From the NCBI GenBank assembly GCA_964529905.1, contig CAZGXJ010000004.1, forward strand, positions 1 to 61,943: 61,943 bases of DNA. The letters are read 5' to 3'. Positions 28,214-44,012 of the stretch are shown piece after piece. This DNA is from an uncultured Nitrososphaeria archaeon (lineage in GTDB: Archaea > Thermoproteota > Nitrososphaeria > Geothermarchaeales > JDFR-13). The notes under the pieces were generated by a model. That model was given only the letters and a program-made list of their open reading frames with translations, ran no database searches and had not been told where the DNA came from. Each line of letters begins with the position of its first letter. The stretch's first letter is position 1. A program made the translations under genes and the position numbers.

Positions 28214-28537
<324 letters not shown>

Positions 28538-30373: not shown

Positions 30374-31915
30374 TTAAAATGCTCCACTTAATAGGTTGGA
30401 TAGGTATTTAGCTGCCCTGAATGCTGGCTCATATATTAGGTTTGGAAAGAGGCCGAATGCTATTAAGAAGATTGTAATTATTAGTAGCGCACTGCCTAGG
30501 AAGGGTGGTATATCTACATCCCTCTTAATATCTTCTGATGGCTGTGAGAGGAATAATCTCTGGAAGAGCCATAGATAGTAGAGTATAGCCAATACACTAT
30601 TGAAGACACCTAGAAAAGCTAATAGCCATTCACCCGCATCTACAGCCGACAATATCAATAACCATTTACTCCAGAAGCCTGGTAATGGAGGTAGGCCTCC
30701 CAGGCTAAATAGGGCTAACATTAATACCATGCTTAGACCTGGATATACCCTTCCAAGACCCTCCAACTTCTTAATACTTCTAGTATGTGTAACATATAAT
30801 ATTCCACCTACTGCTAGGAAAGCTGCCCCCTTCCCCAAGGCATGGGTAAGGATATGGGAGAAGGCAGATGCAAGACCGATGTCTACTGAACCCTTCACAG
30901 CAATACTAAATCCAATAAGTATAAAACCTATATTTACTATACTACTGAAGGCGAGAAGCCTCTTAATATCGTCTTGTAGTAAGGCCATCATATTAGCTAT
31001 TAATAGTGTGGATATAGTTATCACTAGATAAATTGGATAATATATGTTTGAAAGTTCTAGGAAGAAGGGTAGAGCGAACTTTGCAAGACCCAATATACCT
31101 GCCTTTATAACTATACCTGATAATAGGGCGCTTATGGGGCTGGGTGCAGCTGGATGTGCGTCTGGTAACCAGGTCCATAGAGGGAAATACGCAGCCTTAA
31201 CTCCAAAGCCTATTAGGAATAGGCTTGATATTAGAAGTATAGGATAGATTACATTCCCGGGATTCACAGTAGCTAAAAAGCTTAATACTTCATCTAGTGT
31301 CAATACTCCGACCAATCCATAAGTATAGCTTATACCTAGGAGTAGGAGTAGGCTCCCAACTCCGCTTATGACGAGGTATTTAACCGCCGCCTCAACAGGC
31401 TCATCTAAATGGTATCTAAACCCTACTAATACATAGCTACTTATAGCCATTGCCTCCCAGAAGACGAAGAAAGTAAACAAGTCATCTGAGAAGGTTAGAC
31501 CTATTAAGCCGAACATCATAGTACCTATTAATGTATAGTAGCTAGTTAGATTACTATCCTCCTCCATATAATCAATAGATTCTAGATAGGCTGGCAATGC
31601 GAGTAGTGCGAATACTATTATAAAGAATTTTGTGAAGGATGTTATGGATAGCCTAGAACTGCCTATGAAGGGGGATAGTGGTATCGATAAATCTATTGAC
31701 CATACATCTGGCTGGAAGAGATAGAATAGTATGGTTACATATCCTATGAAACCTATTAGGCCTAGATATTTCTCATATCGCCTACCTAGAAGTAGGCCCA
31801 ATAGAGCTGTTATGATAGGTATTAACCCGGAGAATATCAGTATATCATATATTGGATTTATGAATATCATCCATCTATACACCTCCAAATAGGTTAAAGT
31901 ATTCAGACAGACCAC
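30374..31915 (-). CDS. nuoN: Complex I-like antiporter subunit N; likely start ATG 31870
   Basis: FWE.M, EAAVKY, G.GVK, WLPDAHPAAPSPISA.LSG, DDIKRLLAFSS; last gene after L and M. Confidence 0.8.
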   Translation of the reverse strand: MVCLNTLTYLEVYRWMIFINPIYDILIFSGLIPIITALLGLLLGRRYEKYLGLIGFIGYVTILFYLFQPDVWSIDLSIPLSPFIGSSRLSITSFTKFFIIVFALLALPAYLESIDYMEEDSNLTSYYTLIGTMMFGLIGLTFSDDLFTFFVFWEAMAISSYVLVGFRYHLDEPVEAAVKYLVISGVGSLLLLLGISYTYGLVGVLTLDEVLSFLATVNPGNVIYPILLISSLFLIGFGVKAAYFPLWTWLPDAHPAAPSPISALLSGIVIKAGILGLAKFALPFFLELSNIYYPIYLVITISTLLIANMMALLQDDIKRLLAFSSIVNIGFILIGFSIAVKGSVDIGLASAFSHILTHALGKGAAFLAVGGILYVTHTRSIKKLEGLGRVYPGLSMVLMLALFSLGGLPPLPGFWSKWLLILSAVDAGEWLLAFLGVFNSVLAILYYLWLFQRLFLSQPSEDIKRDVDIPPFLGSALLIITIFLIAFGLFPNLIYEPAFRAAKYLSNLLSGAF

Positions 31916-33371
31916 TTAATATAGGGTTTAGGATTGGAGTGGGATATATACCTATCAATATTGCAAGGATTGCTAGTGCAACCATAGGTGCTAACATCGA
32001 TGTAGGGACTTCATGTATCTCCCCGATATTTTCAGGGAGCCTACCGAAGAATATCTTCCTGATAAAAATGGTCATATATGCGGCTGATATAGCGGTTCCG
32101 AGGACAGCGATAACTGTAAACAATATCTTATTTGTAAGTGATATGTTATATACACCGCCAAATATTAGGAATTCACTTATAAAAGCTGCTATACCCGGTA
32201 AACCCGCTATACCCATAGCTCCTACAACTGCTGTAACAGCAGTAATAGGCATTCTAGAAGCTAACCCACCTAACTGGTCAAGATTCCTAATACCTATCAC
32301 ATGTATTAATACACCTGCCACCATGAATAGGAGGGCTTTTAATAGTCCATGGCTATATACATGCATTATACTACCCTCTAAGGAGATAACGTTCGCCGCT
32401 GCTAATCCTAGGAACATATATCCCATCTGACTTATACTACTATATGCAAGTAGCCTCTTAACATCCTTCTGAACAAGAGCCATTAATCCACCATAGAAGA
32501 GGGTTATCAATGCTAGGATCAATAGGAGAGTTATCGATCCTTCAGAAGACCATATGCTGTATGTAAATGGTAGGGTATACCTAATTAAACCATATAACCC
32601 TATCTCTATCATAACACCGCTCAATATAACGCTTATAGGTGTAGGGGCCTCTGCATGGGCCTCAGGTAGCCATCCATGGAGGGGTACTATGGCCATCTTA
32701 ACCCCAAAGCCGAAGAGCATCAGAATCAATAGAAGTCTCTGTATATTTAGGGGTAACTCACCTATAAATGTATATAATATGTTTACATCGAAACTTATTG
32801 AACCATATCTATTTAGAGTATATAGACCTAATATTCCTATGGCAACTATAAGTAGGATACTTCCAAGCTGGGTATATAGGAAATATTTAAATGCAACCCT
32901 CCTACGATCTCCATATCCCCACTCAGCTATCATGAAGTAGCTGGGGATTAGCATAGCCTCCCAGAAGAAGAAGAATTGGAGTAGGTTATAGCTTGCAACT
33001 GCACCTATCATAGCCGCTGTATATAACATGTATGCTAGGAAGTATACCTTCACATTCTCAGCATGATCCATATATCCTACACTATATATGGCAGAAAATA
33101 GCGTTACAATGAGTATTATTGATATAAAGGCATAGGCTATTCCATCAATCCTAAATAATAGGTTTAGAGTTATTAGTCCTGGGACATTTGCCCATGTCAA
33201 GCTCTCAATATAGTTTCCACCTGATGCTAAATACATCTGGTTTAACAATATGTATACTATGAATATCGTTCCCGCGGATACATATCCAGCTTTACTCCCA
33301 TATCTTGCTCCGATTACATATGATAGGAAGCCCCCTATTATTAAGGTATATAGGGATAGTAGGATTATCAC
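31875..33371 (-). CDS. nuoM: Complex I-like antiporter subunit M
   Basis: FFFWE..LIP.Y, F.VK....PLHGWLPEAHAEAPTP.S, KRL.AYSSISQMG, F.SEF. Confidence 0.9.
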   Translation of the reverse strand: MIILLSLYTLIIGGFLSYVIGARYGSKAGYVSAGTIFIVYILLNQMYLASGGNYIESLTWANVPGLITLNLLFRIDGIAYAFISIILIVTLFSAIYSVGYMDHAENVKVYFLAYMLYTAAMIGAVASYNLLQFFFFWEAMLIPSYFMIAEWGYGDRRRVAFKYFLYTQLGSILLIVAIGILGLYTLNRYGSISFDVNILYTFIGELPLNIQRLLLILMLFGFGVKMAIVPLHGWLPEAHAEAPTPISVILSGVMIEIGLYGLIRYTLPFTYSIWSSEGSITLLLILALITLFYGGLMALVQKDVKRLLAYSSISQMGYMFLGLAAANVISLEGSIMHVYSHGLLKALLFMVAGVLIHVIGIRNLDQLGGLASRMPITAVTAVVGAMGIAGLPGIAAFISEFLIFGGVYNISLTNKILFTVIAVLGTAISAAYMTIFIRKIFFGRLPENIGEIHEVPTSMLAPMVALAILAILIGIYPTPILNPILSGLSEYFNLFGGV

Positions 33372-33372
33372 T

Positions 33373-35436
33373 TTAGACCACCACCATATAGGTAAGAGTA
33401 AGTATTATGAAGGTTAGTAGTAAGTATGACATGTTAACCCTAAGCAACCCAGTCTGAATCCTCCTCACAATATCGGTTAATTCACTATAGATAAATTTAA
33501 TGGCTTCTCCACCTCCATTAGACTCAATATATGTAAAGATTTTCTCTGATACAGTTCTGACACCGTCTACAAAGACTAGATAATATAGTGAATTTATGTA
33601 CCATCTATTATATAGGAAGTTCCATATAGGCTTTAGATATCCCTTAACAAGCTCCTCTGGTTCATATCTCCCTACTATATAGGTATAATATGAAGGCATT
33701 AATCCCAATACGACTGCTCCAATAGCTACCAAGAATAATGGGCTTGCTAATGTCCCTATTAGGAATTTGGATATATTTAATAGAGATATCTCCTCCAATA
33801 TATTAACCTCTATATTGAGGCTGTGGAATAGGGGTTTAAAGAATCCACCTAGATATGGTAGTAAGAAGCCTGAAACAATAGAGCCAATAGCCAGTATAAA
33901 TAATGGTGCCTTCATTAGGATGCCTGGGTCATGAGGTGGATGCCCATGTTCGACTAGATGCCTAACGTTTTCACTCTCCTCTCCATAGAATGCTAAGCCG
34001 ATCATTCTAAATGTATAGAATGTAGTCAGGACAGCTGATATCAGCAAGACTATATATGCTATATAATGCCCCTCTACATATGCAGCATGGAGGATAGCAT
34101 CCTTACTCCAGAACCCATTAAACGGTGGAACACCAGCCAAGGATAAGCCTCCAATAGTCATGAGGGTGAATGTCGTGGGCATGTATCTTCTTAAACCGCC
34201 CATATCCCTAAATAGATAGCTATCCACCGCATGCCCTATTGCACCTGCACTTAGGAATAGTAATGCCTTGAAGATCGCATGGCTACTTAGGTGGAATATA
34301 CCTGTTAGATATGAATCTATAAAGGCCTCAGGATGTTCAATCATCAACCCTGCAAGTCCAAAGGCTGCAAACATGTATCCCAACTGACTTACAGTTGAGT
34401 ATGCCAAAACCTTTTTAATCTGGTCTGAGACCATACCTTGTGAAGCAGCTAAAAATGCTGTAAATATACCTATAGATAATACGGCTAAATAGAATGTTTC
34501 TAGGTCACCCCAGATATTTATGCCTAGCTCCTCTAAGGACCAATATACGTTGTAGAGTATGGTTGTAAACCTACCTAGGAAATATACTCCAGCCTTAACC
34601 ATCGTAGCTGCATGTATCAATGCACTAACAGTTGTAGGCCCGGCCATAGCCTCTGGAAGCCATTCATGTAGTGGAAACTGGGCGGATTTACCTATGGGAC
34701 CTAGTAAGGCTAGGAGAAGTGTTATAGATAGGAAACCCATCCTAGATAACTGGTAAGCCCAATCTGGGTTACTCGATAGATCCATGAAATTAGTGGTTCC
34801 AGCTGTTAGAAGTATTATAATGGTTGCGGTTAGAAGCCCTACATCACCTATCCTCGTAGTTATAAAGGCTTTCATACCCGCATGTGTAGGTGGATATGGA
34901 CCTATCCAATACTTCTCCTCATCCTTATAATAATATCCAATCAATGCATAGCTGGCGAATCCTACACCCTCCCATCCGAAAAACATGGTAACCAAACTAT
35001 CTCCAAGTACAAGGAGTTGCATAGAGCCAATAAATATATTCATAAGGACCCAATATCTAACTATCGATTCATCACCATGCATATACTCAATCGAATATAT
35101 CAGTATTAGACTGCCTATAAGGGAGACTACGTTAGCCATAAATATGCTTAGAGGGTCTAGGAGAAGACCAAATGTAACGTTTAAACCATCTACTGGAAAC
35201 CACCTAGTCAATATTAGATCATAGGGGATATCTTTCTCGACCCCACCTATACTTAGTATACCGTCCATAGCATCTAGACCTATTGTTAATGAAGCTCCAG
35301 CAGATATTAGACCTCCTAAAACAGCTATAAAATCCCTAAATCTATGGCTAATTCTATCAGCTAAGGGTATAATGAAAATGATTATAAATGGGGATAGCCA
35401 GATCAGATTAGCCAGGATATTTAACATATTTACCAC
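33373..35436 (-). CDS. nuoL: Complex I-like antiporter subunit L
   Basis: WEGVG..SY.LI, GKSAQFPLH.WLP.AMAGPT.VSALIHAATMV.AG, FWSKD.I. Confidence 0.93.
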   Translation of the reverse strand: MVNMLNILANLIWLSPFIIIFIIPLADRISHRFRDFIAVLGGLISAGASLTIGLDAMDGILSIGGVEKDIPYDLILTRWFPVDGLNVTFGLLLDPLSIFMANVVSLIGSLILIYSIEYMHGDESIVRYWVLMNIFIGSMQLLVLGDSLVTMFFGWEGVGFASYALIGYYYKDEEKYWIGPYPPTHAGMKAFITTRIGDVGLLTATIIILLTAGTTNFMDLSSNPDWAYQLSRMGFLSITLLLALLGPIGKSAQFPLHEWLPEAMAGPTTVSALIHAATMVKAGVYFLGRFTTILYNVYWSLEELGINIWGDLETFYLAVLSIGIFTAFLAASQGMVSDQIKKVLAYSTVSQLGYMFAAFGLAGLMIEHPEAFIDSYLTGIFHLSSHAIFKALLFLSAGAIGHAVDSYLFRDMGGLRRYMPTTFTLMTIGGLSLAGVPPFNGFWSKDAILHAAYVEGHYIAYIVLLISAVLTTFYTFRMIGLAFYGEESENVRHLVEHGHPPHDPGILMKAPLFILAIGSIVSGFLLPYLGGFFKPLFHSLNIEVNILEEISLLNISKFLIGTLASPLFLVAIGAVVLGLMPSYYTYIVGRYEPEELVKGYLKPIWNFLYNRWYINSLYYLVFVDGVRTVSEKIFTYIESNGGGEAIKFIYSELTDIVRRIQTGLLRVNMSYLLLTFIILTLTYMVVV

Positions 35437-35741
35437 CTTAACCTACGGAGCTCATCGACATTTAAGGTATTATACTTCCTAAAAACTATAAGGGTTAGGG
35501 CTAGTCCCACCCCAACCAATACGCCATCTAAGACGATGGATGTTATAACTATTGCATTTGTCAATGCATCCGTCAACCCCCCAGTCTTTATATAGGATAG
35601 ACCTATAAAGTTTAGATTAACACCAGTAGCCAATATCTCAATACCTATAAAGATCTTCATCAAGTTCTTCTTAGTGGATGCCATATATATACCTATACCT
35701 ACTAGAAGTAGGGATGTTGCCATTAAGGAATATTCGATCAC
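35430..35741 (-). CDS. nuoK: Complex I-like subunit K
   Basis: Three TM; GIE, VGL, LRW C-terminus. Confidence 0.88.
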   Translation of the reverse strand: MIEYSLMATSLLLVGIGIYMASTKKNLMKIFIGIEILATGVNLNFIGLSYIKTGGLTDALTNAIVITSIVLDGVLVGVGLALTLIVFRKYNTLNVDELRRLRW

Positions 35742-36004
35742 TCCCTCTCACCTCTCAACACATATATTAAGACACCCAATAAACCAGCTAACACGACTAT
35801 ACCCTGTACAACGGTATCTATCACTCTAGATCTCCAGAGGAAATACGAGGTAAGATTTAAACCCTGGTCGGGTGTATTAACGTTACCCAAAAAAGTCTTA
35901 AATATTTCAGGGGAGATCTCGACTAGCCATACAATCAGGAGGATGACGGCTATTAAACCTATAATCCTATATATAGTTTCAGTAAGTGGCATCCCTTGGA
36001 ACAC
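35738..36004 (-). CDS. Complex I-like subunit J, C-terminal half (split gene)
   Basis: FLW..R..D..V..IV.LAG..G resembles the NuoJ C-terminal helix; position between J and K. Confidence 0.7.
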   Translation of the reverse strand: MFQGMPLTETIYRIIGLIAVILLIVWLVEISPEIFKTFLGNVNTPDQGLNLTSYFLWRSRVIDTVVQGIVVLAGLLGVLIYVLRGERE

Positions 36005-36242
36005 CTCCCCTAGTCATTATGAATACGAATATGAACATTATTATAACAGCTCCAGAGAATACCGCTATCTGGACTATTCCAGGGAAGACCGCTCCCAACA
36101 TGAAGAATATCAAAGCTGCTAATACGCTTATGATCAACAAGCTTAGGATCGCGTAAGCCAAATTTCTAGTCTCCGATGCATATATAGATAATAAAACCAT
36201 TAAGATCTGGATAGATAATATCGTTATCTCGAAGGGGGTCAT
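35979..36242 (-). CDS. nuoJ: Complex I-like subunit J, N-terminal half
   Basis: Three TM with LGA.F.GIVQI.V..GA. Confidence 0.8.
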   Translation of the reverse strand: MTPFEITILSIQILMVLLSIYASETRNLAYAILSLLIISVLAALIFFMLGAVFPGIVQIAVFSGAVIIMFIFVFIMTRGGVPRDATY

Positions 36243-36715
36243 TCCAACCTCCTCTTAATATACTTCATACCTTCCTTAGTAGTAACTGGCTTCAATACAT
36301 ATTTAAGCTGTGGCAACAACTCCTTAATATTTTCTGGTTTAGTCATCCTCTCAGGATAATATGTCAAATCTCTATATTCACTACTACTCAACTCAACTAC
36401 ATCTTGCATATATAGGGCATCCCTAGGACATATCTCAACACACAGACCACAGAAGCTACATTTAAGGAAATCTATAGCTGGGTAGGTAAGCTTCTTCCCT
36501 TCCACAGGCTTCATCATAATAGCTTCATCTGGACATATATATCCACATGCCCCACAGCCGATACATTCCTCCATCCTCAGGACTATCCTACCCCTAGTCC
36601 TCTCATATCCTTCCAACCGTTCGTAGGGATACTTATGTGTAACAGGTTTATAAGCTACATGTTTCAATACAGTCGCGAACGGGACAATAATTCTACTTAT
36701 AAAGTTTCTCTTCAC
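36239..36715 (-). CDS. nuoI: Complex I-like subunit I (2x[4Fe-4S])
   Basis: T..YP.E, RGR, CIGCGACGYICP, CSFCGLCVEICP. Confidence 0.93.
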   Translation of the reverse strand: MKRNFISRIIVPFATVLKHVAYKPVTHKYPYERLEGYERTRGRIVLRMEECIGCGACGYICPDEAIMMKPVEGKKLTYPAIDFLKCSFCGLCVEICPRDALYMQDVVELSSSEYRDLTYYPERMTKPENIKELLPQLKYVLKPVTTKEGMKYIKRRLE

Positions 36716-36718
36716 CCT

Positions 36719-37738
36719 CTACACCCCCAACACATATTTAATTATTAATGTTATGATGATGTTTAATATGGAGAGCGGGATTAAATAATACCATCCAAGC
36801 CTAATGGCTTGGTCTATCCTAAGTCTAGCATATGAGATTACAACTGTAAAAGTTATAGTTAATACAATTAATAATTTTAATAGCATCCAGAAGGCCCCAT
36901 TTAAGACAGGGTCCTGGAAAATTGTTGGGCCATTATATCCACCAAGATATAGAGTAATCATTAGGAGTGCCCATGCCAAGACGTTTATGTAGTCACCCAG
37001 CATAGTATCCAGGAATAGTGCACCTGTATATTCCGTCCTATAGCCGAATACAAGCTCCGTCTCAGCTTCTGGTATATCCATTGGGGCCTTCTCGATCATG
37101 GCGAAATAACTTATGAAGAAGACTATAAATCCTATAAATTGGGGAATTATATTCCACATCATGGCCTGCTTCTCCACTATAGTCTGGAGATCATATGATT
37201 CGGCCCATATAATAACTCCTAAAACCGATAGGAACATCGGTATCTCTCCAGCTACATCTAAATAAATCGTCCTAAAGGCACCAACAAGAGTAAATTTATT
37301 GTTTGATGCCCAACCCATCAAGATAATGAATATTGGATATAGACTCATAATACCTATAAATAGTATCGCTGAATAGCCCCTAACATCGAATATCGCATAT
37401 CCAGGGGCGAAAGGTATAAGAGCTATCGCTGCAGCGGGGATGACTGGTAGGGTAATCGCTGATAATAGGAATAGCTTCTTATAGGCATATTTAGGAAGTA
37501 TAATTTCCTTAGTTAGTAGTTTAAAGGCATCGGCTATTAACTGTAGCCAACCTAAAACCCTTCCAGCATGTACAGGCCCCATCCTCATCATGAGCCTAGC
37601 TAGATACTTCCTCTGATACCATACAGCGAATATGGTGAATAGAAATAGGAAGGTTAGACCTGGGAAGAAGGTTATCTTAAATAGGGTTGGGAAATTCTCA
37701 TTTATAAATTGGAATATCTGATCCAACATGGCAATCAC
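36719..37738 (-). CDS. nuoH: Complex I-like subunit H
   Basis: R.GP...G...G.LQ.IADA.KLL.KE, P.D.PEAE.ELV.G...EY.G. Confidence 0.94.
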   Translation of the reverse strand: MIAMLDQIFQFINENFPTLFKITFFPGLTFLFLFTIFAVWYQRKYLARLMMRMGPVHAGRVLGWLQLIADAFKLLTKEIILPKYAYKKLFLLSAITLPVIPAAAIALIPFAPGYAIFDVRGYSAILFIGIMSLYPIFIILMGWASNNKFTLVGAFRTIYLDVAGEIPMFLSVLGVIIWAESYDLQTIVEKQAMMWNIIPQFIGFIVFFISYFAMIEKAPMDIPEAETELVFGYRTEYTGALFLDTMLGDYINVLAWALLMITLYLGGYNGPTIFQDPVLNGAFWMLLKLLIVLTITFTVVISYARLRIDQAIRLGWYYLIPLSILNIIITLIIKYVLGV

Positions 37739-38883
37739 CTATCCGCATCTAGAAACCATGGATCGAAGCTATATATAAGGGGTGGAACATCCGCCAATCT
37801 GATCTCCTGAATCTTGGGCAGCTGCTCAATTACGTAAAAGTTCCTAAAGCTTGCTGGACTTATCTTCACCCTATATGGCTTATCCCTACCCTCAGTATAG
37901 ATGTAGAAGTTTATCTCACCCCTACCAGTCTCAGCCCTGGCTAATGTCTCCTGTTTAACGGGCCTAGGTGGGAGAGCCTTCTTAACAGGCCCATCTGGGA
38001 TATTCTCTATAGCTTGTCTAATGATATCCACGCTAACCTTCATCTCCTCAAACCTTACCCAACCCCTAGCATATGAGTCTCCTGCCGTATGGGTGACGAT
38101 CTTAAAATCTAATTCAGGATAGGCTGAATAAGGCTCATTTTTACGGGTATCATATGGGACGCCAGAGGCTCTAAGGCTGGGGCCCGCTGCTCCCCACTCA
38201 ATAGCCTTATCCCTAGGAAGTACACCTACACCCTCTGTCCTCATCCTAAAAGTCTCATTATATATCCATGCATCTTCATATACCTGGAACCTCTTCTCGA
38301 GATAATCCATTGTATTTAGGATCCTCTCCTTAATCCCATTAGGTAGATCAGCCCTAACACCACCAGGTATAAAGAAGGAGTGGCTCCACCTAGCCCCCGT
38401 AATCATCTCTAATAGGTCAAGTATAGGCTCACGATCAGCTGTAGTCCATATAAATACAGCAGGGTTCCACCCTGCAGACTCGGCGAAAAGACCTAATGCA
38501 TATAGATGGCTCGATATCCTATTCAACTCATTAATAATAGTCCTAATATATTTAGCCCTTGGAGGGGGTTCAACACCATATAGATCCTCTACAGCCCTAA
38601 CAAACCCCATCAAGATATTTGAGGTGTCTAACATAACCATTCTCTCCAATGGGACTACGGCCTGTATATAGTTTTTAAACTCCAATATCTTCTCTATACC
38701 TCTATGGCTATATCCAATATCAACCTCGATATCATATACAATCTCTCCATCCGTTAATATTAGGAACCTGCCTTGACCACTTATTGGATGTTGGGGACCA
38801 ATATTTAATCTAAATAATCCCTCCCTAACAACCTCTATATCTTGGAATGGATCAGATAAATATCTATGCATGTCATAACTCAC
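37735..38883 (-). CDS. nuoD: Complex I-like subunit D (no NiFe-binding CxxC motifs)
   Basis: NIGPQHP, GY.HRG.EK, EL.RI.SHL, TG.R, GG V..D, E..RGE, C-terminal DP...D.DR. Confidence 0.9.
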   Translation of the reverse strand: MSYDMHRYLSDPFQDIEVVREGLFRLNIGPQHPISGQGRFLILTDGEIVYDIEVDIGYSHRGIEKILEFKNYIQAVVPLERMVMLDTSNILMGFVRAVEDLYGVEPPPRAKYIRTIINELNRISSHLYALGLFAESAGWNPAVFIWTTADREPILDLLEMITGARWSHSFFIPGGVRADLPNGIKERILNTMDYLEKRFQVYEDAWIYNETFRMRTEGVGVLPRDKAIEWGAAGPSLRASGVPYDTRKNEPYSAYPELDFKIVTHTAGDSYARGWVRFEEMKVSVDIIRQAIENIPDGPVKKALPPRPVKQETLARAETGRGEINFYIYTEGRDKPYRVKISPASFRNFYVIEQLPKIQEIRLADVPPLIYSFDPWFLDADR

Positions 38884-39362
38884 TTCTCATCACCCCATGG
38901 AACCTTATATCTAGCTGGGTTGAAGTCCTTCCTAAGGGGGTAACCCTCCTTCTCAAAATCCCAGTCATCTGGTAGTAGTAGGAGTTTAAGCCTAGGATGT
39001 CCCTCGATCTTAACTCCTAGTAGCTCCCACGTCTCCCTCTCATAGTTATGTACCGATGGCCATATATCTATAAAGGTCTTGAAGCTAGGATCCTCCCTAG
39101 ATATATCAAATTTCATAAATGCAACGAAATCATGTTTAGACGACCACACACCATAAAATATCTCTATTACATTCTTCTTAGGGAAATCTGTTCCACCCAT
39201 AGTAATAGCCATATCGAAGCCAAGATCCTTTAAAAATTTAGCTACTTCATGGGCTACATCATATTTAACCTTGAAGTATAGCCTCTTATCTTCAGGCTTG
39301 GCCGATATGATGTTTTCGCCGAATCTCTCCTTAAGCCTATTTAGAAGCTCCGTTGGATTCAT
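38880..39362 (-). CDS. nuoC: Complex I-like subunit C
   Basis: ERE.WELLGV...GHP.LK.LLLP.DW....YPLRKDF. Confidence 0.92.
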   Translation of the reverse strand: MNPTELLNRLKERFGENIISAKPEDKRLYFKVKYDVAHEVAKFLKDLGFDMAITMGGTDFPKKNVIEIFYGVWSSKHDFVAFMKFDISREDPSFKTFIDIWPSVHNYERETWELLGVKIEGHPRLKLLLLPDDWDFEKEGYPLRKDFNPARYKVPWGDEK

Positions 39363-39834
39363 CTCCTCCTACCTCACGTAAAACCTTCTCCCTAAGCTTC
39401 AGTATTCCATAGTGTATCGACTCTGGCTTAGGTGGACACCCAGCTGAGAACATATCAACCTTCATATAGTCCTTAACCCTAACTAAGCTATAACTCTCGG
39501 GGAAAGGCCCCTTACTAGATGCACATGCACCAACAACATATACCCATTTAGGTTCAGGCATCTGTTCATATAGCCTTAAAGCCCTAATCATCATCTTCCT
39601 AGCCACATTGCCTACAAATATCATCACGTCGCTCTGCCTAGTAGAAGCCATTGGGAGGACACCCCACCTCTCTAAATCGTATCTAGGCCCGAATAACTGC
39701 ATATACTCTGGGCTACAGCATCCAGTGACTAGGTGTACAGGCCATAGACTGAAGGATCTTCCCCAGTTAAATATCTTTTTAATCGTCTTAGGGAACCTTT
39801 CGAGTAGACCCCTCTTATACTCAACCTCACTCAT
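39337..39834 (-). CDS. nuoB: Complex I-like subunit B (N2 cluster)
   Basis: TGCC..E, RYD.ER.G, RQ.D, QMPEPK.V...GACA, GCPP.PE. Confidence 0.93.
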   Translation of the reverse strand: MSEVEYKRGLLERFPKTIKKIFNWGRSFSLWPVHLVTGCCSPEYMQLFGPRYDLERWGVLPMASTRQSDVMIFVGNVARKMMIRALRLYEQMPEPKWVYVVGACASSKGPFPESYSLVRVKDYMKVDMFSAGCPPKPESIHYGILKLREKVLREVGGDESNGASK

Positions 39835-40202
39835 CCCTTAAACACCTCCAATATCTTAGATAGGTAAAACCATAGGGCGGTCAAGATTGTAACTAAATAA
39901 ATAAGTAGATATATAATTCCAATACCTCCAATAACACTTAATGCAAATGAACTACTTATAAGAATCCAGACGAAAGCGTCTAAAACGAAGAAGGCCATTG
40001 CATATGCAAAATATCTTATAGATCCGAATAGGCCTACCTCATTGGGGATTACATCCATCTTCTGTCCAGCCTCGAAAACATCATATTTATATGGCTCCCT
40101 CTTCCTACTAGCCAGTATCCATGCAATAACTATTGTAGCTGCAGATGATACGAAGAATAAGATAATGTATATCCAGAAAGCTTCATATGGTGATAGAGGC
40201 AT
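39831..40202 (-). CDS. nuoA: Complex I-like subunit A
   Basis: Three TM; K...FEAG, Y...A..F.V.D. Confidence 0.85.
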   Translation of the reverse strand: MPLSPYEAFWIYIILFFVSSAATIVIAWILASRKREPYKYDVFEAGQKMDVIPNEVGLFGSIRYFAYAMAFFVLDAFVWILISSSFALSVIGGIGIIYLLIYLVTILTALWFYLSKILEVFKG

Positions 40203-40204
40203 CT

Positions 40205-41329
40205 CTATCCACCTCCATATAACTTGTTTAACATATTTATAATTTCATCCTCACCATATTCCAGCTTCTCCAATAAACCCTCGCTTAACATCCTATTCAC
40301 GATCTCCTCAGCCTTTTCACTCCTAATAATTAGTATAACTCCATCTATTCCGTCAACCAGCCCAGCTGAAATATCTGAATACTCCCCAGTCACGTCGTTT
40401 ACCTCCTCAATAGCAGGGTTCACCGCGTCTTTAACATCTTCAAATTTAAATTCGATCCATTTACCATTTGCTTTAAGCCTAATAGATTCGGGGGTATACT
40501 CTACATCCTCTATACTACCCCAATTCACACCATTTTTAACTAGATACTGTGTAAATTTAGATGGTAGGAAGAATTTCCTATGGAAGTATGAGGCCAGAAA
40601 GACAACGGTCCTAAGCAGTTTTGTATGTCCAGCCCATGAAAACCTCCCCCTCCAGATACTCCTAATATGTTCAGGAGGCCCAAGAATAGCTACCTTAGGG
40701 ACCTCAACCCCCTGGAAGAATCCACCCTTCAACTCATCAATTACTCCTCTTAAACCTAGTATGGTGGGTGGCTGGCTAAATACCTTCAACTTCATGTTAT
40801 CAACTTCCTCAGGCTTCAATGCATAGGAAGGTCTAGATTTCCAGCCGATAACCTGGTAGCTTAACAACCCCTCGGTAACGGGTTCATCCCTACCCGCATA
40901 GGCTACAGCACCCCAATACCCATTTTCAAGCCCATACCTAAGTATCTTCTTTAAGACAGCCTCATCTGGAAACGCGTTAACATCGTCCACCTTCTTAACA
41001 GCTATAACCTTTCTATATACACCAAATGGATATCTCCTCTCTACACCAAAGACAAGCTTATCTATCTTAATTTTATCTCCAAACCCATCGAAATCTTCTT
41101 CTGTAGTTCCTGGACATGCATAGTAACAATATCCACATTTTATGCATACCCCCAGAAGTCTTGGGACATCATCCAACATCTGTATAGCATATGTAGGGCA
41201 TACAGAGGCACATGCACTACAATATACACATTTACCCGTCCTAATTATATCCTTCAATAGATTAGCAAATATCTTCCTCTGTGTGATTGGCCCATATGGA
41301 GTTGGCCATAGTTTCAACTCTCCACTCAT
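40205..41329 (-). CDS. FrhB/FpoF(FqoF)-like protein: N-terminal 2x[4Fe-4S] ferredoxin plus degenerate F420-dehydrogenase beta domain
   Basis: CVYCSACASVCP and CIKCGYCYYACP; C-terminal D..GE.SDISAG and IIRSEK.EE pattern of FrhB; first gene of the nuo operon. Confidence 0.78.
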   Translation of the reverse strand: MSGELKLWPTPYGPITQRKIFANLLKDIIRTGKCVYCSACASVCPTYAIQMLDDVPRLLGVCIKCGYCYYACPGTTEEDFDGFGDKIKIDKLVFGVERRYPFGVYRKVIAVKKVDDVNAFPDEAVLKKILRYGLENGYWGAVAYAGRDEPVTEGLLSYQVIGWKSRPSYALKPEEVDNMKLKVFSQPPTILGLRGVIDELKGGFFQGVEVPKVAILGPPEHIRSIWRGRFSWAGHTKLLRTVVFLASYFHRKFFLPSKFTQYLVKNGVNWGSIEDVEYTPESIRLKANGKWIEFKFEDVKDAVNPAIEEVNDVTGEYSDISAGLVDGIDGVILIIRSEKAEEIVNRMLSEGLLEKLEYGEDEIINMLNKLYGGG

Positions 41330-41443
41330 CTTATTCTATACCTCCGCCAATACATCTAATGAGTCTAAAGTCTTTATAGATGTAGTATAGCATAATATAT
41401 ATGTGTATTAGATTTTTAACCTAACGTAAATACATTAAAAGAT

Positions 41444-42040
41444 ATGGATTTTAAAATAGCTATAGAACATCTCGAACCAGTATATAGTCTATGGCTTATC
41501 TATGAATATATCAATGCAAGCAGGTTTCAAAGAGGTGGGATAGCCTATACCAATATAGGTAATCCAAGGGTTAGGAGGATATTAAGTAGGTATGGTTATG
41601 TATATAAGGAGAGAATTGGGGATATCGTAGATAAGGAGCGACTTATAATCCTGGATCCCAATGCGGAGAAAGATATTGAATATAATGAGATAGGTGATAA
41701 GATACTTGTTATTGGTGGAATACTTGGAGATAACCCTCCAAGGGGGAGGACTGAGAAGCTTCTATGGAGTAGATATAGGGGAGCTATAAGGAGAAGGATG
41801 GGGATAGGACAGATGAGTATAGATTCATCCGTATATGTAGCGTCAAAGATCTTAGAAGGTTATAGCCTTAATGATATAGATTTTATTGAGGGATTAACTA
41901 TTGAGACGGATCTAGATGTTATAATACTCCCCTATAGATACCCCCTTGAAAATGGAGAACCTATTATATCACCAGTAATAAGGAAGATAATCCAATTTAT
42001 AGGTCTTTTCCATGAATACTGGCTTAGGACAATTGAATAG
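41444..42040 (+). CDS. SPOUT-family SAM-dependent methyltransferase (Sfm1/DUF431-like)
   Basis: IEHLE, LIILDP.A, VIGGILGD.PPRGRT, QMSID, LPYRYP. Confidence 0.85.
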   Translation: MDFKIAIEHLEPVYSLWLIYEYINASRFQRGGIAYTNIGNPRVRRILSRYGYVYKERIGDIVDKERLIILDPNAEKDIEYNEIGDKILVIGGILGDNPPRGRTEKLLWSRYRGAIRRRMGIGQMSIDSSVYVASKILEGYSLNDIDFIEGLTIETDLDVIILPYRYPLENGEPIISPVIRKIIQFIGLFHEYWLRTIE

Positions 42041-42123
42041 GGAATATAGATATTATTTAAACTGTAAAGACTATTATATATTTAAATTACCTGGGTGAGG
42101 CTTTATTTATTGAGGGGAGTATA

Positions 42124-42312
42124 ATGATAGAAGATCTCGTCTTGATTTTGGGTAATCAGGAATTAATCATACTAGTTATAATATTTGTGATACTCCTTAT
42201 ATGGGGTCCGAGCCAATTACCTAAACTCGCTAGAGCCTTAGGACAGGCAAAGAAGGAGTTTGAAGCAGCCCAGAAGGAGAGTGAAGAGAAGGAGAAAAAA
42301 TCTGAGGAGTAA
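42124..42312 (+). CDS. tatA: Twin-arginine translocase subunit TatA
   Basis: G..EL.I......L.WGP..LP.LARALG.A..EF. Confidence 0.92.
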   Translation: MIEDLVLILGNQELIILVIIFVILLIWGPSQLPKLARALGQAKKEFEAAQKESEEKEKKSEE

Positions 42313-42356
42313 AAAAAATATTAACAGGAATTTAGAGTTGTTTATAAAGAGGGTAT

Positions 42357-44012
42357 TTAATCCTCTCCGCCGAACTCCTCCGTCCCTGAAGGTCCTTTAC
42401 CCTTCTCCTCTTCCTTGAGTCTGCTAGCGGCTATTACGTCGTCTATCCTTAGTATCATTGATGCTACCTCAGTGGCAGCCTTAATCATCTGCTCTTTAAC
42501 TAGTGCTGGCTCGATAACCTCCTTCTCCATCATATCAGCTATCTTACCTGAGGACACGTCTACACCATGCCATGTCTTACCCCTACTATGGGCACTCTTA
42601 AGCTTAACCTCAATATCAATTGTATCCAAGCCAGAGTTCTCCGCTAGAGTCAATGGGATTACTTCAAGGGCATCTGCGAAGGCCTCAGCGGCTAACTGCT
42701 CCCTACCATGTAGCTTCTGAGCCCATTTCCTAACCTCTAGAGCTAATTCAGCCTCTGTTGCACCTCCTCCTGCGACGATCTCAGGCCTTAAAATTATATC
42801 TCTAACCACGTTTAATGCATCTACAAGGCTTCTCTCAGCTTCATCCACTACCCTCTCACTACCACCTCTAACCAGTATGGTGACAGCCCTAGGATTCTTA
42901 CATCCCTCTATAAAGACGAATTTGTCATCCTCGATCTTCCTCTCCTCTACAACATCTGCATATCCAAGGTCATCAGGAGTTAGATCATCTATATTATTTA
43001 CAATCCTAGCACCTGTAGCTTTTGCAAGCTTCTCCATATCACTTTGCTTAACCCTCCTAACAGCCAGTACTCCAGCCTTAGCTAAGTAGTGCTGGGCAAC
43101 ATCGTCTATACCCTTCTGACATATAACTACATTTGCACCCGTAGATGTAATCTTATCAACCATCTCCTTAAGCATCCTCCTCTCTTCCTCTAGGAACATT
43201 CTAATCTGATCAGGAGATGTGATGTTTATCCTTGCGTCGAACTCCGTCTTCTCAATCTCCAATGGAGCATTTATCAATGCAATCTTAGCTTTCTCTATCC
43301 TTCTAGGCATACCACTATGGACAACCTCTTTATCTAATACTACACCATTTACGAAGACCGTATCCTTGATACTCCCACCCGGCTTCTTCTCAATCTTTAC
43401 ATCGTCAAGATCAATCTTTACACCGCTGTCAGTCTTCTGGATAATATGTCTAACAGCCTTGACAGCGATCTCTGCTAGGTAATCCTTATAACCAGCGACA
43501 AGTTTACTGTTCATAGCCGTCTTAGCAGCCTTCTTAAGCGTCTCATCATCATTGGGATCTACCTTGACCGCGATCTTCCTTAAAACCTCTACAGCCTTAT
43601 CAGCAGCCCTCTTATATCCATCGATAATCACTGTTGGATGTACCTCCCTCTCAATCAACTTCTCAGCGTTAGATAGTAACTCCCCAGCTAAGACGACGAC
43701 GGAGGTTGTCCCATCACCCACCTCAGCATCCTGTGCCTTAGCAACTTCTACCATCATCTTGGCTGCAGGATGCTCTATCTCCATCTCCTTAAGCATTGTC
43801 GCACCATCATTTGTTATTACCACATCACCTAGGCTATCTACAAGCATCTTATCCATTCCCTTAGGCCCTAGGCTCGATTTAACTATCTCAGCTACAGTCT
43901 TAGCAGCTAGGATATTCTTCTTCATAGCTTCACGTCCCTTACTCCTAGAAGTACCCTCCTTCAAGATTATTATCGGCTGACCAGCCGCCACCGGATATGC
44001 AGGAGCACTCAT
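42357..44012 (-). CDS. ths: Thermosome (group II chaperonin) subunit
   Basis: [27 protein letters not shown] motifs. Confidence 0.98.

Follow-up and report, generated by a model that had tools for sequence, protein, structure and literature searches.

An FpoF/FqoF-like subunit with degenerate FrhB-domain cofactor sites heads the complex I operon in a family of Geothermarchaeales archaea

We report that the complex I (nuo) operon of an uncultured Geothermarchaeales archaeon starts with the gene for an FpoF/FqoF-like protein (here the F-like protein) in which the ferredoxin domain is intact and the FrhB domain is degenerate. Specifically, the FrhB domain of the family's ancestor has lost its [4Fe-4S] ligands, the FAD pyrophosphate site and most of the F420 site; its fold was kept while these sites went, and the lineage has acquired a conserved tail at the N-terminus, an aromatic/basic helix and two insertions, which are likewise conserved. 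We give a rough probability of 0.55 to the reading that the protein is a pseudo-enzyme subunit of FpoF/FqoF descent, serving as a ferredoxin-fed wire into NuoI on a dead FrhB domain that provides a scaffold or docking surface.

The donor and the input device of the 11-subunit complex I, which is widespread in archaea and many bacteria, are a long-standing question, and no designated partner protein of this complex was recognised by Moparthi and Hagerhall (PMC3144371). The Geothermarchaeales (Ca. Geothermarchaeota, class Nitrososphaeria; names after PMC9635834) are uncultivated archaea of hydrothermal and crustal fluids. In the literature on Geothermarchaeota or Geothermarchaeales combined with complex I or FpoF we found no published description of their F-like subunit.

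Gene position and operon structure

The window, i.e. the whole stretch of DNA analysed, comprises 61,943 nucleotides (contig CAZGXJ010000004.1). It belongs to a 719 kb assembly in 41 contigs (GCA_964529905.1), which is probably incomplete, with congeners at 1.1-1.3 Mb. The F-like gene and the operon that it heads are listed below in the direction of transcription.

41340-41378, minus strand: putative upstream signals of the F-like gene, a TATAAA-like box (41373-41378) and a GGAGGT Shine-Dalgarno sequence (41340-41345)
40205-41329, minus strand: cofactor-less FpoF/FqoF-like subunit gene (P0001), 374 aa, stop codon at 40205-40207
39831-40202, minus strand: nuoA, ATG 2 nt past the stop codon of the F-like gene
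39337-39834, minus strand: nuoB, four N2 Cys present (39, 40, 104 and 133)
38880-39362, minus strand: nuoC
37735-38883, minus strand: nuoD, no Cys
36719-37738, minus strand: nuoH
36239-36715, minus strand: nuoI, all eight Cys present
35738-36242, minus strand: nuoJ, two overlapping open reading frames in different frames (approximately 35979-36242 and 35738-35992)
35430-35741, minus strand: nuoK
33373-35436, minus strand: nuoL
31875-33371, minus strand: nuoM
30374-31915, minus strand: nuoN

A first-pass annotation, made from the sequence alone, had placed the F-like gene at 40205-41329 and at the head of a nuoA-N operon. The span is correct, to which we add the minus strand, and the gene is indeed the first cistron, ending 2 nt before nuoA. 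The ribosome-binding site of nuoA is formed by the final codons of the F-like gene (GGAGGTGGA), and the two genes are translationally coupled. As read from the sequence, 10 nt separate the GGAGGT element from the ATG of the F-like gene, and together with the TATAAA-like box it would constitute the expression signals of this gene. The same-strand order after the F-like gene is nuoA, B, C, D, H, I, J (split), K, L, M and N. NuoD is devoid of Cys, which identifies the operon as one for complex I rather than for a hydrogenase. The split of nuoJ into two reading frames was common to all eight relatives examined.

Domain architecture and fold

The F-like protein is divided into three regions:

41246-41329, minus strand: residues 1-28, clade-specific N-terminal tail with W8, P9, Y12, G13, I15 and R18 invariant
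41090-41245, minus strand: residues 29-80, 2x[4Fe-4S] ferredoxin domain with C34, C37, C40 and C44, and C62, C65, C68 and C72
40208-41089, minus strand: residues 81-374, degenerate FrhB-like domain, cluster Cys absent and D-x-TGEY-x-D-I-S-x-G loop kept

The N-terminal tail is missing from canonical relatives and is probably a contact to other subunits. Both ferredoxin motifs noted in the first-pass annotation are complete CxxCxxCxxxCP motifs, CVYCSACASVCP (C34/37/40/44, residues 34-45) and CIKCGYCYYACP (C62/65/68/72, residues 62-73); each Cys run ends in Pro, and 8/8 Cys are invariant across 26 homologues. The last Cys is C72, and no Cys was found beyond it in the 374-aa product, as had also been read at first pass.

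With the Pfam models, FrhB_FdhB_C (PF04432) matched residues 212-354 at 37.5 bits (cut-off 23.3), Fer4 and Fer4_7 were both above their cut-offs, and FrhB_FdhB_N (PF04422) gave no match in the F-like protein. The score was 41.3 bits for NF006807 (cut-off 269; canonical neighbours 258-295) and 31.6 bits for TIGR03289, which is below the cut-off of 331.5. The FpoF models (NF040616 and NF006808) were absent among the best 25 of 77 NCBIfam matches at E≤1; on the canonical neighbours they scored 165-191 bits.

An AlphaFold2 model generated from 26 homologues had a mean pLDDT of 87.6 and a pTM of 0.89, and was disordered at residues 1-18 only (pLDDT <50). The best Foldseek matches were 8RIU_B (TM 0.75 over 356 aligned columns) and 8RJA_E (TM 0.70), the FrhB-like F420-reductase subunits of the Ca. 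Ethanoperedens CODH and Fwd, followed by the N-terminal half of Fsr, FrhB and HCAR; over the FrhB-like structures the values ranged from E 5e-20 to 4e-15 and from TM 0.57 to 0.75. With hhalign, residues 18-360 aligned to 25 canonical relatives at a probability of 100% (E 3e-66). Because of the Foldseek matches and the hhalign result, we conclude that the F-like protein is a homologue, over its full length, of the ferredoxin domain plus FrhB architecture, in line with its earlier assignment to the FrhB/FpoF family. This architecture is common to FpoF, FqoF and the N-terminal half of Fsr (PMC3591093, PMC10229431). No solved structure of an FpoF-complex I assembly was found in the PDB.

Loss and retention of cofactor sites

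The cofactor sites were compared in an alignment of 30 clade members and the 66 nearest canonical proteins, obtained by an exhaustive profile search. In FrhB the [4Fe-4S] ligands C104, C134, C192 and C195 are fully conserved within the family (PMC3591093). None of the 30 clade members has a Cys in any of the four ligand columns. The corresponding positions 220, 250, 307 and 310 are Cys in 66, 66, 64 and 66 of the 66 outgroup proteins, respectively, and E, H, I and V in the F-like protein. The FAD pyrophosphate motif QDGG has become P(D/E)EA in the clade (PDEA in the F-like protein), where positions 123 and 124, Gly in 63 and 65 of the 66 outgroup proteins, are E/A. The motif readings of the first-pass annotation (GPPEH at 217-221, ASYFH at 246-250, IEEVND at 307-312 and DEAV at 122-125) are exact. 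Its claim that the FrhB Cys and the flavin GG are lost stands, and can be widened to the K-Y and lysine loops. Specifically, the flavin-side loop GTKY reads LKVF in the F-like protein and is LKVF-like across the clade, with the Tyr present in 62/66 outgroup proteins versus none in the clade. The lysine turn (IGKGK or IKKG(R/K)F), thought to hold the F420 phosphate, is gone and acidic or aromatic residues take its place; the Lys of IKKG (K275 column) is K in 53/66 outgroup proteins and D in 26/30 clade members.

The F420-site loop D-x3-E-x-ADIS-x-G...R ([AS]D[ILV]SxG) is kept and invariant in the clade. Conservation of this former active-site loop (D312-x-T-G-E-Y-x-D319-x-S321-x-G323) is at least as high as in active enzymes, which hints at a kept or new putative binding site and not at pure scaffold.

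In Frh and Fsr, electrons pass from FAD via the FrhB cluster to the clusters of the ferredoxin domain (PMC3591093, PMC10229431). With the FrhB cluster lost, the flavin site of the F-like protein is therefore cut off from the ferredoxin-domain wire, even if a ligand is bound there.

Conservation and selection in the clade

A global profile search gave six clusters at 50% identity with at least 362 bits, after which the next protein scored 184 bits. The Cys-less proteins are monophyletic (SH-aLRT 100%) and sit on a long stem; the Cys losses are far beyond chance because they are common to this clade. A Cys-less homologue is present in 14/14 genomes of the Geothermarchaeales family, representing seven genera, and no full-length Cys-less copy was found in a sample of 27 further genomes of the order and class. 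Moreover, in 13/13 related loci the homologue immediately precedes nuoA-B-C-D-H-I-(J)-K-L. The reading frame is intact in 13 of the 14 genomes, and in the remaining one (MAG G006) it is split in two.

Two close pairs with unsaturated dS gave dN/dS values of 0.056 and 0.055 for the F-like gene versus 0.007-0.008 for NuoD. By region, dN/dS was 0 in the N-terminal tail, 0-0.05 in the ferredoxin domain and 0.04-0.15 in the FrhB-like domain. The first-pass annotation had raised strain-specific pseudogenisation as a way in which the Cys loss could be trivial; this is ruled out by conservation (14/14), synteny (13/13) and dN/dS (≈0.055), i.e. the loss is clade-wide and linked to the operon.

We identified 37 clade-specific positions, defined by a conservation of 90% or more among clade members and by residues that canonical proteins seldom or never have. 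They include W8, P9, Y12, G13, I15 and R18 in the tail, F80-G82-F83 in the linker, P150, L156 and F205 in two insertions, P218, H221, I225, W226, R229 and W232 in a basic/aromatic helix, and further R251, G315 and Y317.

A canonical sister still joined to nuo was sought to date the loss and none was established; the tree did not resolve the sister group of the clade. The canonical homologues of G015 and G016, which belong to the same order, and of Ca. Hecatella do not adjoin nuo. Among the four top outgroup proteins complex-I-like genes lie near P0031 only, P0032 lies beside Mtd and CofE, and P0033 and P0034 are uninformative.

F420 and ferredoxin gene content

The cof/fbi genes, suggested as a check at first pass, were surveyed in the 14 family genomes. 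FO synthase (CofH/CofG) was found in none of them and CofC and CofD in two, both deep genera (G007 and G009). A CofE-family ligase is present in 13/14, though the rest of the F420 pathway is missing; it does not sit easily with the other findings and may reflect some deazaflavin-related chemistry. The F-like subunit is kept with or without F420-pathway genes and this therefore speaks against an F420-dependent role. The motif loss and the F420-pathway profiles, taken together, argue strongly against a canonical F420H2 dehydrogenase. It is thus well supported that the F-like protein is not one, and the first-pass view that canonical F420H2 oxidation is unlikely gains support from both sides.

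NuoF was found in 0/14 family genomes, and no second FrhB-family gene in the 719 kb source assembly. The alpha subunit of 2-oxoacid:ferredoxin oxidoreductase (POR_N) is encoded in 13/14 family genomes, in 1-8 copies each; no POR gene was found in the source assembly, which is probably incomplete. Judged from gene content, ferredoxin is evidently a major reduced carrier in the family. One ferredoxin gene lies 1.8 kb beyond nuoN:

28214-28537, plus strand: Zn-7Fe ferredoxin gene, 107 aa, acidic product (pI 4.6)

It matches 2VKR/1XER (E 4.5e-46), is single-copy in the source assembly and is a candidate soluble donor. The same neighbourhood after nuoN occurs in G004 (91% identity) and the deep-branching G007 (82%), and not in G008. 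Ferredoxins of this type accept electrons from 2-oxoacid oxidoreductases in Sulfolobales.

Proposed role and alternatives

According to the reading we prefer, a complex I that lacks NuoEFG and otherwise has 11 subunits would have the F-like protein as its twelfth, located in the peripheral arm. The protein descends from the F420H2-oxidising head FpoF/FqoF, in which a 2x[4Fe-4S] ferredoxin domain at the N-terminus is followed by an FrhB flavoprotein domain, and its seat on the Q-module is predicted to be that of FpoF/FqoF. Hydride-derived electrons from F420H2 could presumably no longer pass via a flavin, and the two ferredoxin-domain clusters, as the sole redox centres, would lengthen the chain from NuoI (N6a/N6b) to NuoB (N2) outward. 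These clusters would be reduced, one electron at a time, by a one-electron donor of low potential. The donor is most likely reduced ferredoxin, with the Zn-7Fe ferredoxin, reduced by the many 2-oxoacid:ferredoxin oxidoreductases, as the prime candidate, and the complex as a whole would act as a ferredoxin:quinone oxidoreductase. Anchoring of the module to the Q-module, a docking surface for the donor, or both may be provided by the dead FrhB domain together with the new tail. Against such a port, the ferredoxin domain of canonical relatives is placed with the FrhB domain on one side and the partner on the other, so that access of the donor to the distal cluster is putative. The suggestion of a repurposed adaptor or ferredoxin-docking module made at first pass is also the best reading here, its part on the donor being conjectural. 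The further idea of a possible new type of complex I input module is a fair hypothesis as long as it is taken to mean a variant of FpoF/FqoF and not a categorically new module.

More tentatively, the protein might be a dedicated input module in which the cofactor-free FrhB shell, together with the clade-specific tail, the insertions and the basic/aromatic helix, is a receptor for a specific donor that the two clusters wire to NuoI. Candidates for this donor would be the Zn-7Fe ferredoxin, a 2-oxoacid oxidoreductase that docks on the shell, or a new ligand of small size bound at the kept active-site loop.

Similarly doubtful is that the FrhB domain has acquired a new specific ligand (another nucleotide or a cofactor resembling deazaflavin) or a donor enzyme of its own that docks on it, and has so become a new input device. 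The 37 clade-specific residues (H221, W226, R229, W232, R251, G315 and Y317 among them), the two conserved insertions, the invariant former active-site loop, the purifying selection on the FrhB-like domain and the CofE-family gene in 13/14 genomes are all consistent with this. However, the conserved residues are equally explicable as inter-subunit contacts, the operon holds no conserved partner gene, and, now that the intermediate cluster is gone, no redox-competent path connects the former flavin pocket with the clusters of the ferredoxin domain.

We regard it as unlikely that the subunit caps the peripheral arm in a structural, protective or assembly role; it would then shield or stabilise NuoI, with its own clusters off-pathway and electrons entering NuoI straight. 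Direct electron entry into NuoI has been proposed for FpoF-less Fpo and cyanobacterial NDH-1. In sister lineages, among them the ammonia oxidisers, 11-subunit complexes function in the absence of any such subunit, full-length homologues were not found outside the family in the genomes sampled, and the FrhB domain is catalytically dead, all of which would suit a cap. It would be odd, though, if the clusters were dispensable in a protein whose ferredoxin domain is the most constrained (8/8 Cys invariant, dN/dS 0-0.05).

The kept ADISxG-type loop beside the F420 site, together with the conserved CofE-family gene and CofC and CofD in two deep genera, could be taken as a sign of a dehydrogenase that uses F420H2 or a flavin via a non-canonical cofactor site and a scavenged deazaflavin. 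We consider this very improbable: every member has lost the K-Y and lysine loops as well as the GG site and all four cluster ligands, the FrhB_N HMM does not match, and the subunit is present in 14/14 genomes, yet FO synthase is in 0/14 and CofC and CofD are absent from 12/14. Finally, a functionless remnant, i.e. a pseudogene in progress, for which one may cite evolution approximately 7x faster than NuoD and the split gene in one MAG, is effectively refuted by the intact reading frame in 13/14 genomes and seven genera, dN/dS of ≈0.055, the new invariant residues and the translational coupling to nuoA.

The family thus gives a whole group of TACK archaea with an operon-encoded twelfth subunit of clear ancestry, in which a two-cluster wire sits on a conserved shell, and a clean case of a redox enzyme that became a pseudo-enzyme subunit. 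As a natural "minimal head" it bears on what an FpoF-type subunit needs for attachment to, and use by, complex I, and it is a concrete, expressible protein for testing ferredoxin-driven complex I. Should it be a dedicated module, the archaeal 11-subunit complex I would have in it a first genetically defined "partner protein" beyond the F420-dependent systems; as a structural cap only, its interest would be modest.

Comparison with known systems

Like FqoF of Archaeoglobus fulgidus and FpoF of Methanosarcina, the F-like protein combines an N-terminal 2x[4Fe-4S] ferredoxin domain with an FrhB fold and is, by genetic linkage, the twelfth subunit of a complex I without NuoEFG. Unlike them, it is devoid of the FrhB [4Fe-4S] Cys, the FAD GG and both the K-Y and lysine loops, carries insertions and an additional tail at the N-terminus, and occurs in a TACK host (Nitrososphaeria) without FO synthase. 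In the 2011 genome survey by Moparthi and Hagerhall, FpoF-type complexes were present in Euryarchaeota only (PMC3144371). With FrhB (4OMF/4CI0), the N-terminal half of Fsr (7NP8/7NPA) and 8RIU_B/8RJA_E it shares the fold and the D..E.ADISxG...R core motif, but each of those proteins binds F420 and FAD as well as a single [4Fe-4S] cluster, and the residues for each of the three are replaced here. Judged by its sequence, the F-like protein is a degenerate derivative; we do not class it as an FpoF or FrhB enzyme because the defining cofactor residues are missing and the scores are below the thresholds of the corresponding HMMs.

The HCAR/BciB-type proteins (5DQR) likewise belong to the FrhB family and use ferredoxin, not F420; they differ in having kept their Fe-S clusters and FAD and in being soluble pigment reductases.

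FpoF-less Fpo (Methanothrix/Methanosaeta), the Fpo-like complex of Methanomassiliicoccales and the cyanobacterial and chloroplast NDH-1 with NdhS/V/O are ferredoxin-fed, as proposed or shown. The likeness to these complexes would be functional, i.e. an 11-subunit core that accepts reduced ferredoxin instead of NADH or F420H2. They either have no additional Fe-S head or carry small docking subunits devoid of clusters, whereas the operon described here encodes a dedicated head in which a 2x[4Fe-4S] domain is joined to a dead flavoprotein as scaffold. By analogy, the complex with the F-like subunit probably works like these ferredoxin-accepting 11-subunit complexes.

Gene organisation around the F gene and nuoA-N

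The nuoJ and nuoA regions of the window, both on the minus strand, comprise the following features:

35738-36242 (-), nuoJ as two overlapping ORFs in different frames, about 85 aa each
40200-40225 (-), nuoA Shine-Dalgarno inside the 3' end of the F gene (its final codons)

A frameshift error as the cause of the nuoJ split was ruled out, since the identical two-ORF split is present in all eight relatives examined; NuoJ here is a conserved two-gene form. The nuoA Shine-Dalgarno coincides with the final F-gene codons GGA GGT GGA (Gly-Gly-Gly), and nuoA starts 2 nt past the F stop; this dual use may partly account for the conserved C-terminal LYGG(G) of the F protein.

Upstream of the F gene (41444-44012), two genes described as divergent were found, and in most family loci both stay beside it:

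41444-42040 (+), SFM1-like protein arginine methyltransferase
42357-44012 (-), thermosome subunit

In one MAG (G006, 280 contigs), the F homologue is present as two ORFs of 242 and 145 aa (L029 1454-2571, G006:C8), because of a frameshift or assembly error, or because the gene is genuinely disrupted in this lineage.

Ferredoxin, F420 genes and assembly completeness

28214-28537 (+), zinc-containing 7Fe ferredoxin of the Sulfolobus type, matching 2VKR/1XER at E 4.5e-46
C38:1-576 and C32:1-78 (contigs of the window's assembly, G000), CofE-family (F420-0:gamma-glutamyl ligase, PF01996) gene; also in relatives G001-G012

The ferredoxin is 82-91% identical between genera, and its position after nuoN-PAC2-AP endonuclease is common to the window, G004 and G007; the G008 ferredoxin lacks this placement. 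The CofE-family gene is kept in 13 of the 14 family genomes, among which none has FO synthase and only G007 and G009 have CofC and CofD.

The G000 assembly comprises 719 kb vs 1.1-1.3 Mb in congeners, and no POR_N gene (2-oxoacid:ferredoxin oxidoreductase alpha subunit) was found in the whole of it, although every relative has at least one. The completeness of 84% estimated for it is probably an overestimate.

Surroundings of the nearest canonical relative

The nearest canonical (Cys-containing) relative, P0031, is encoded within L038 1-7023 (GCA_037917675.1 contig), where the neighbours of its gene are a fused NuoC-NuoD, a NuoB-like/Fer4 fusion of 165 aa and a divergent set of nuoA-B-C. The locus is a complex-I-like mini-cluster of unusual make-up, and its FpoF-like gene is intact.
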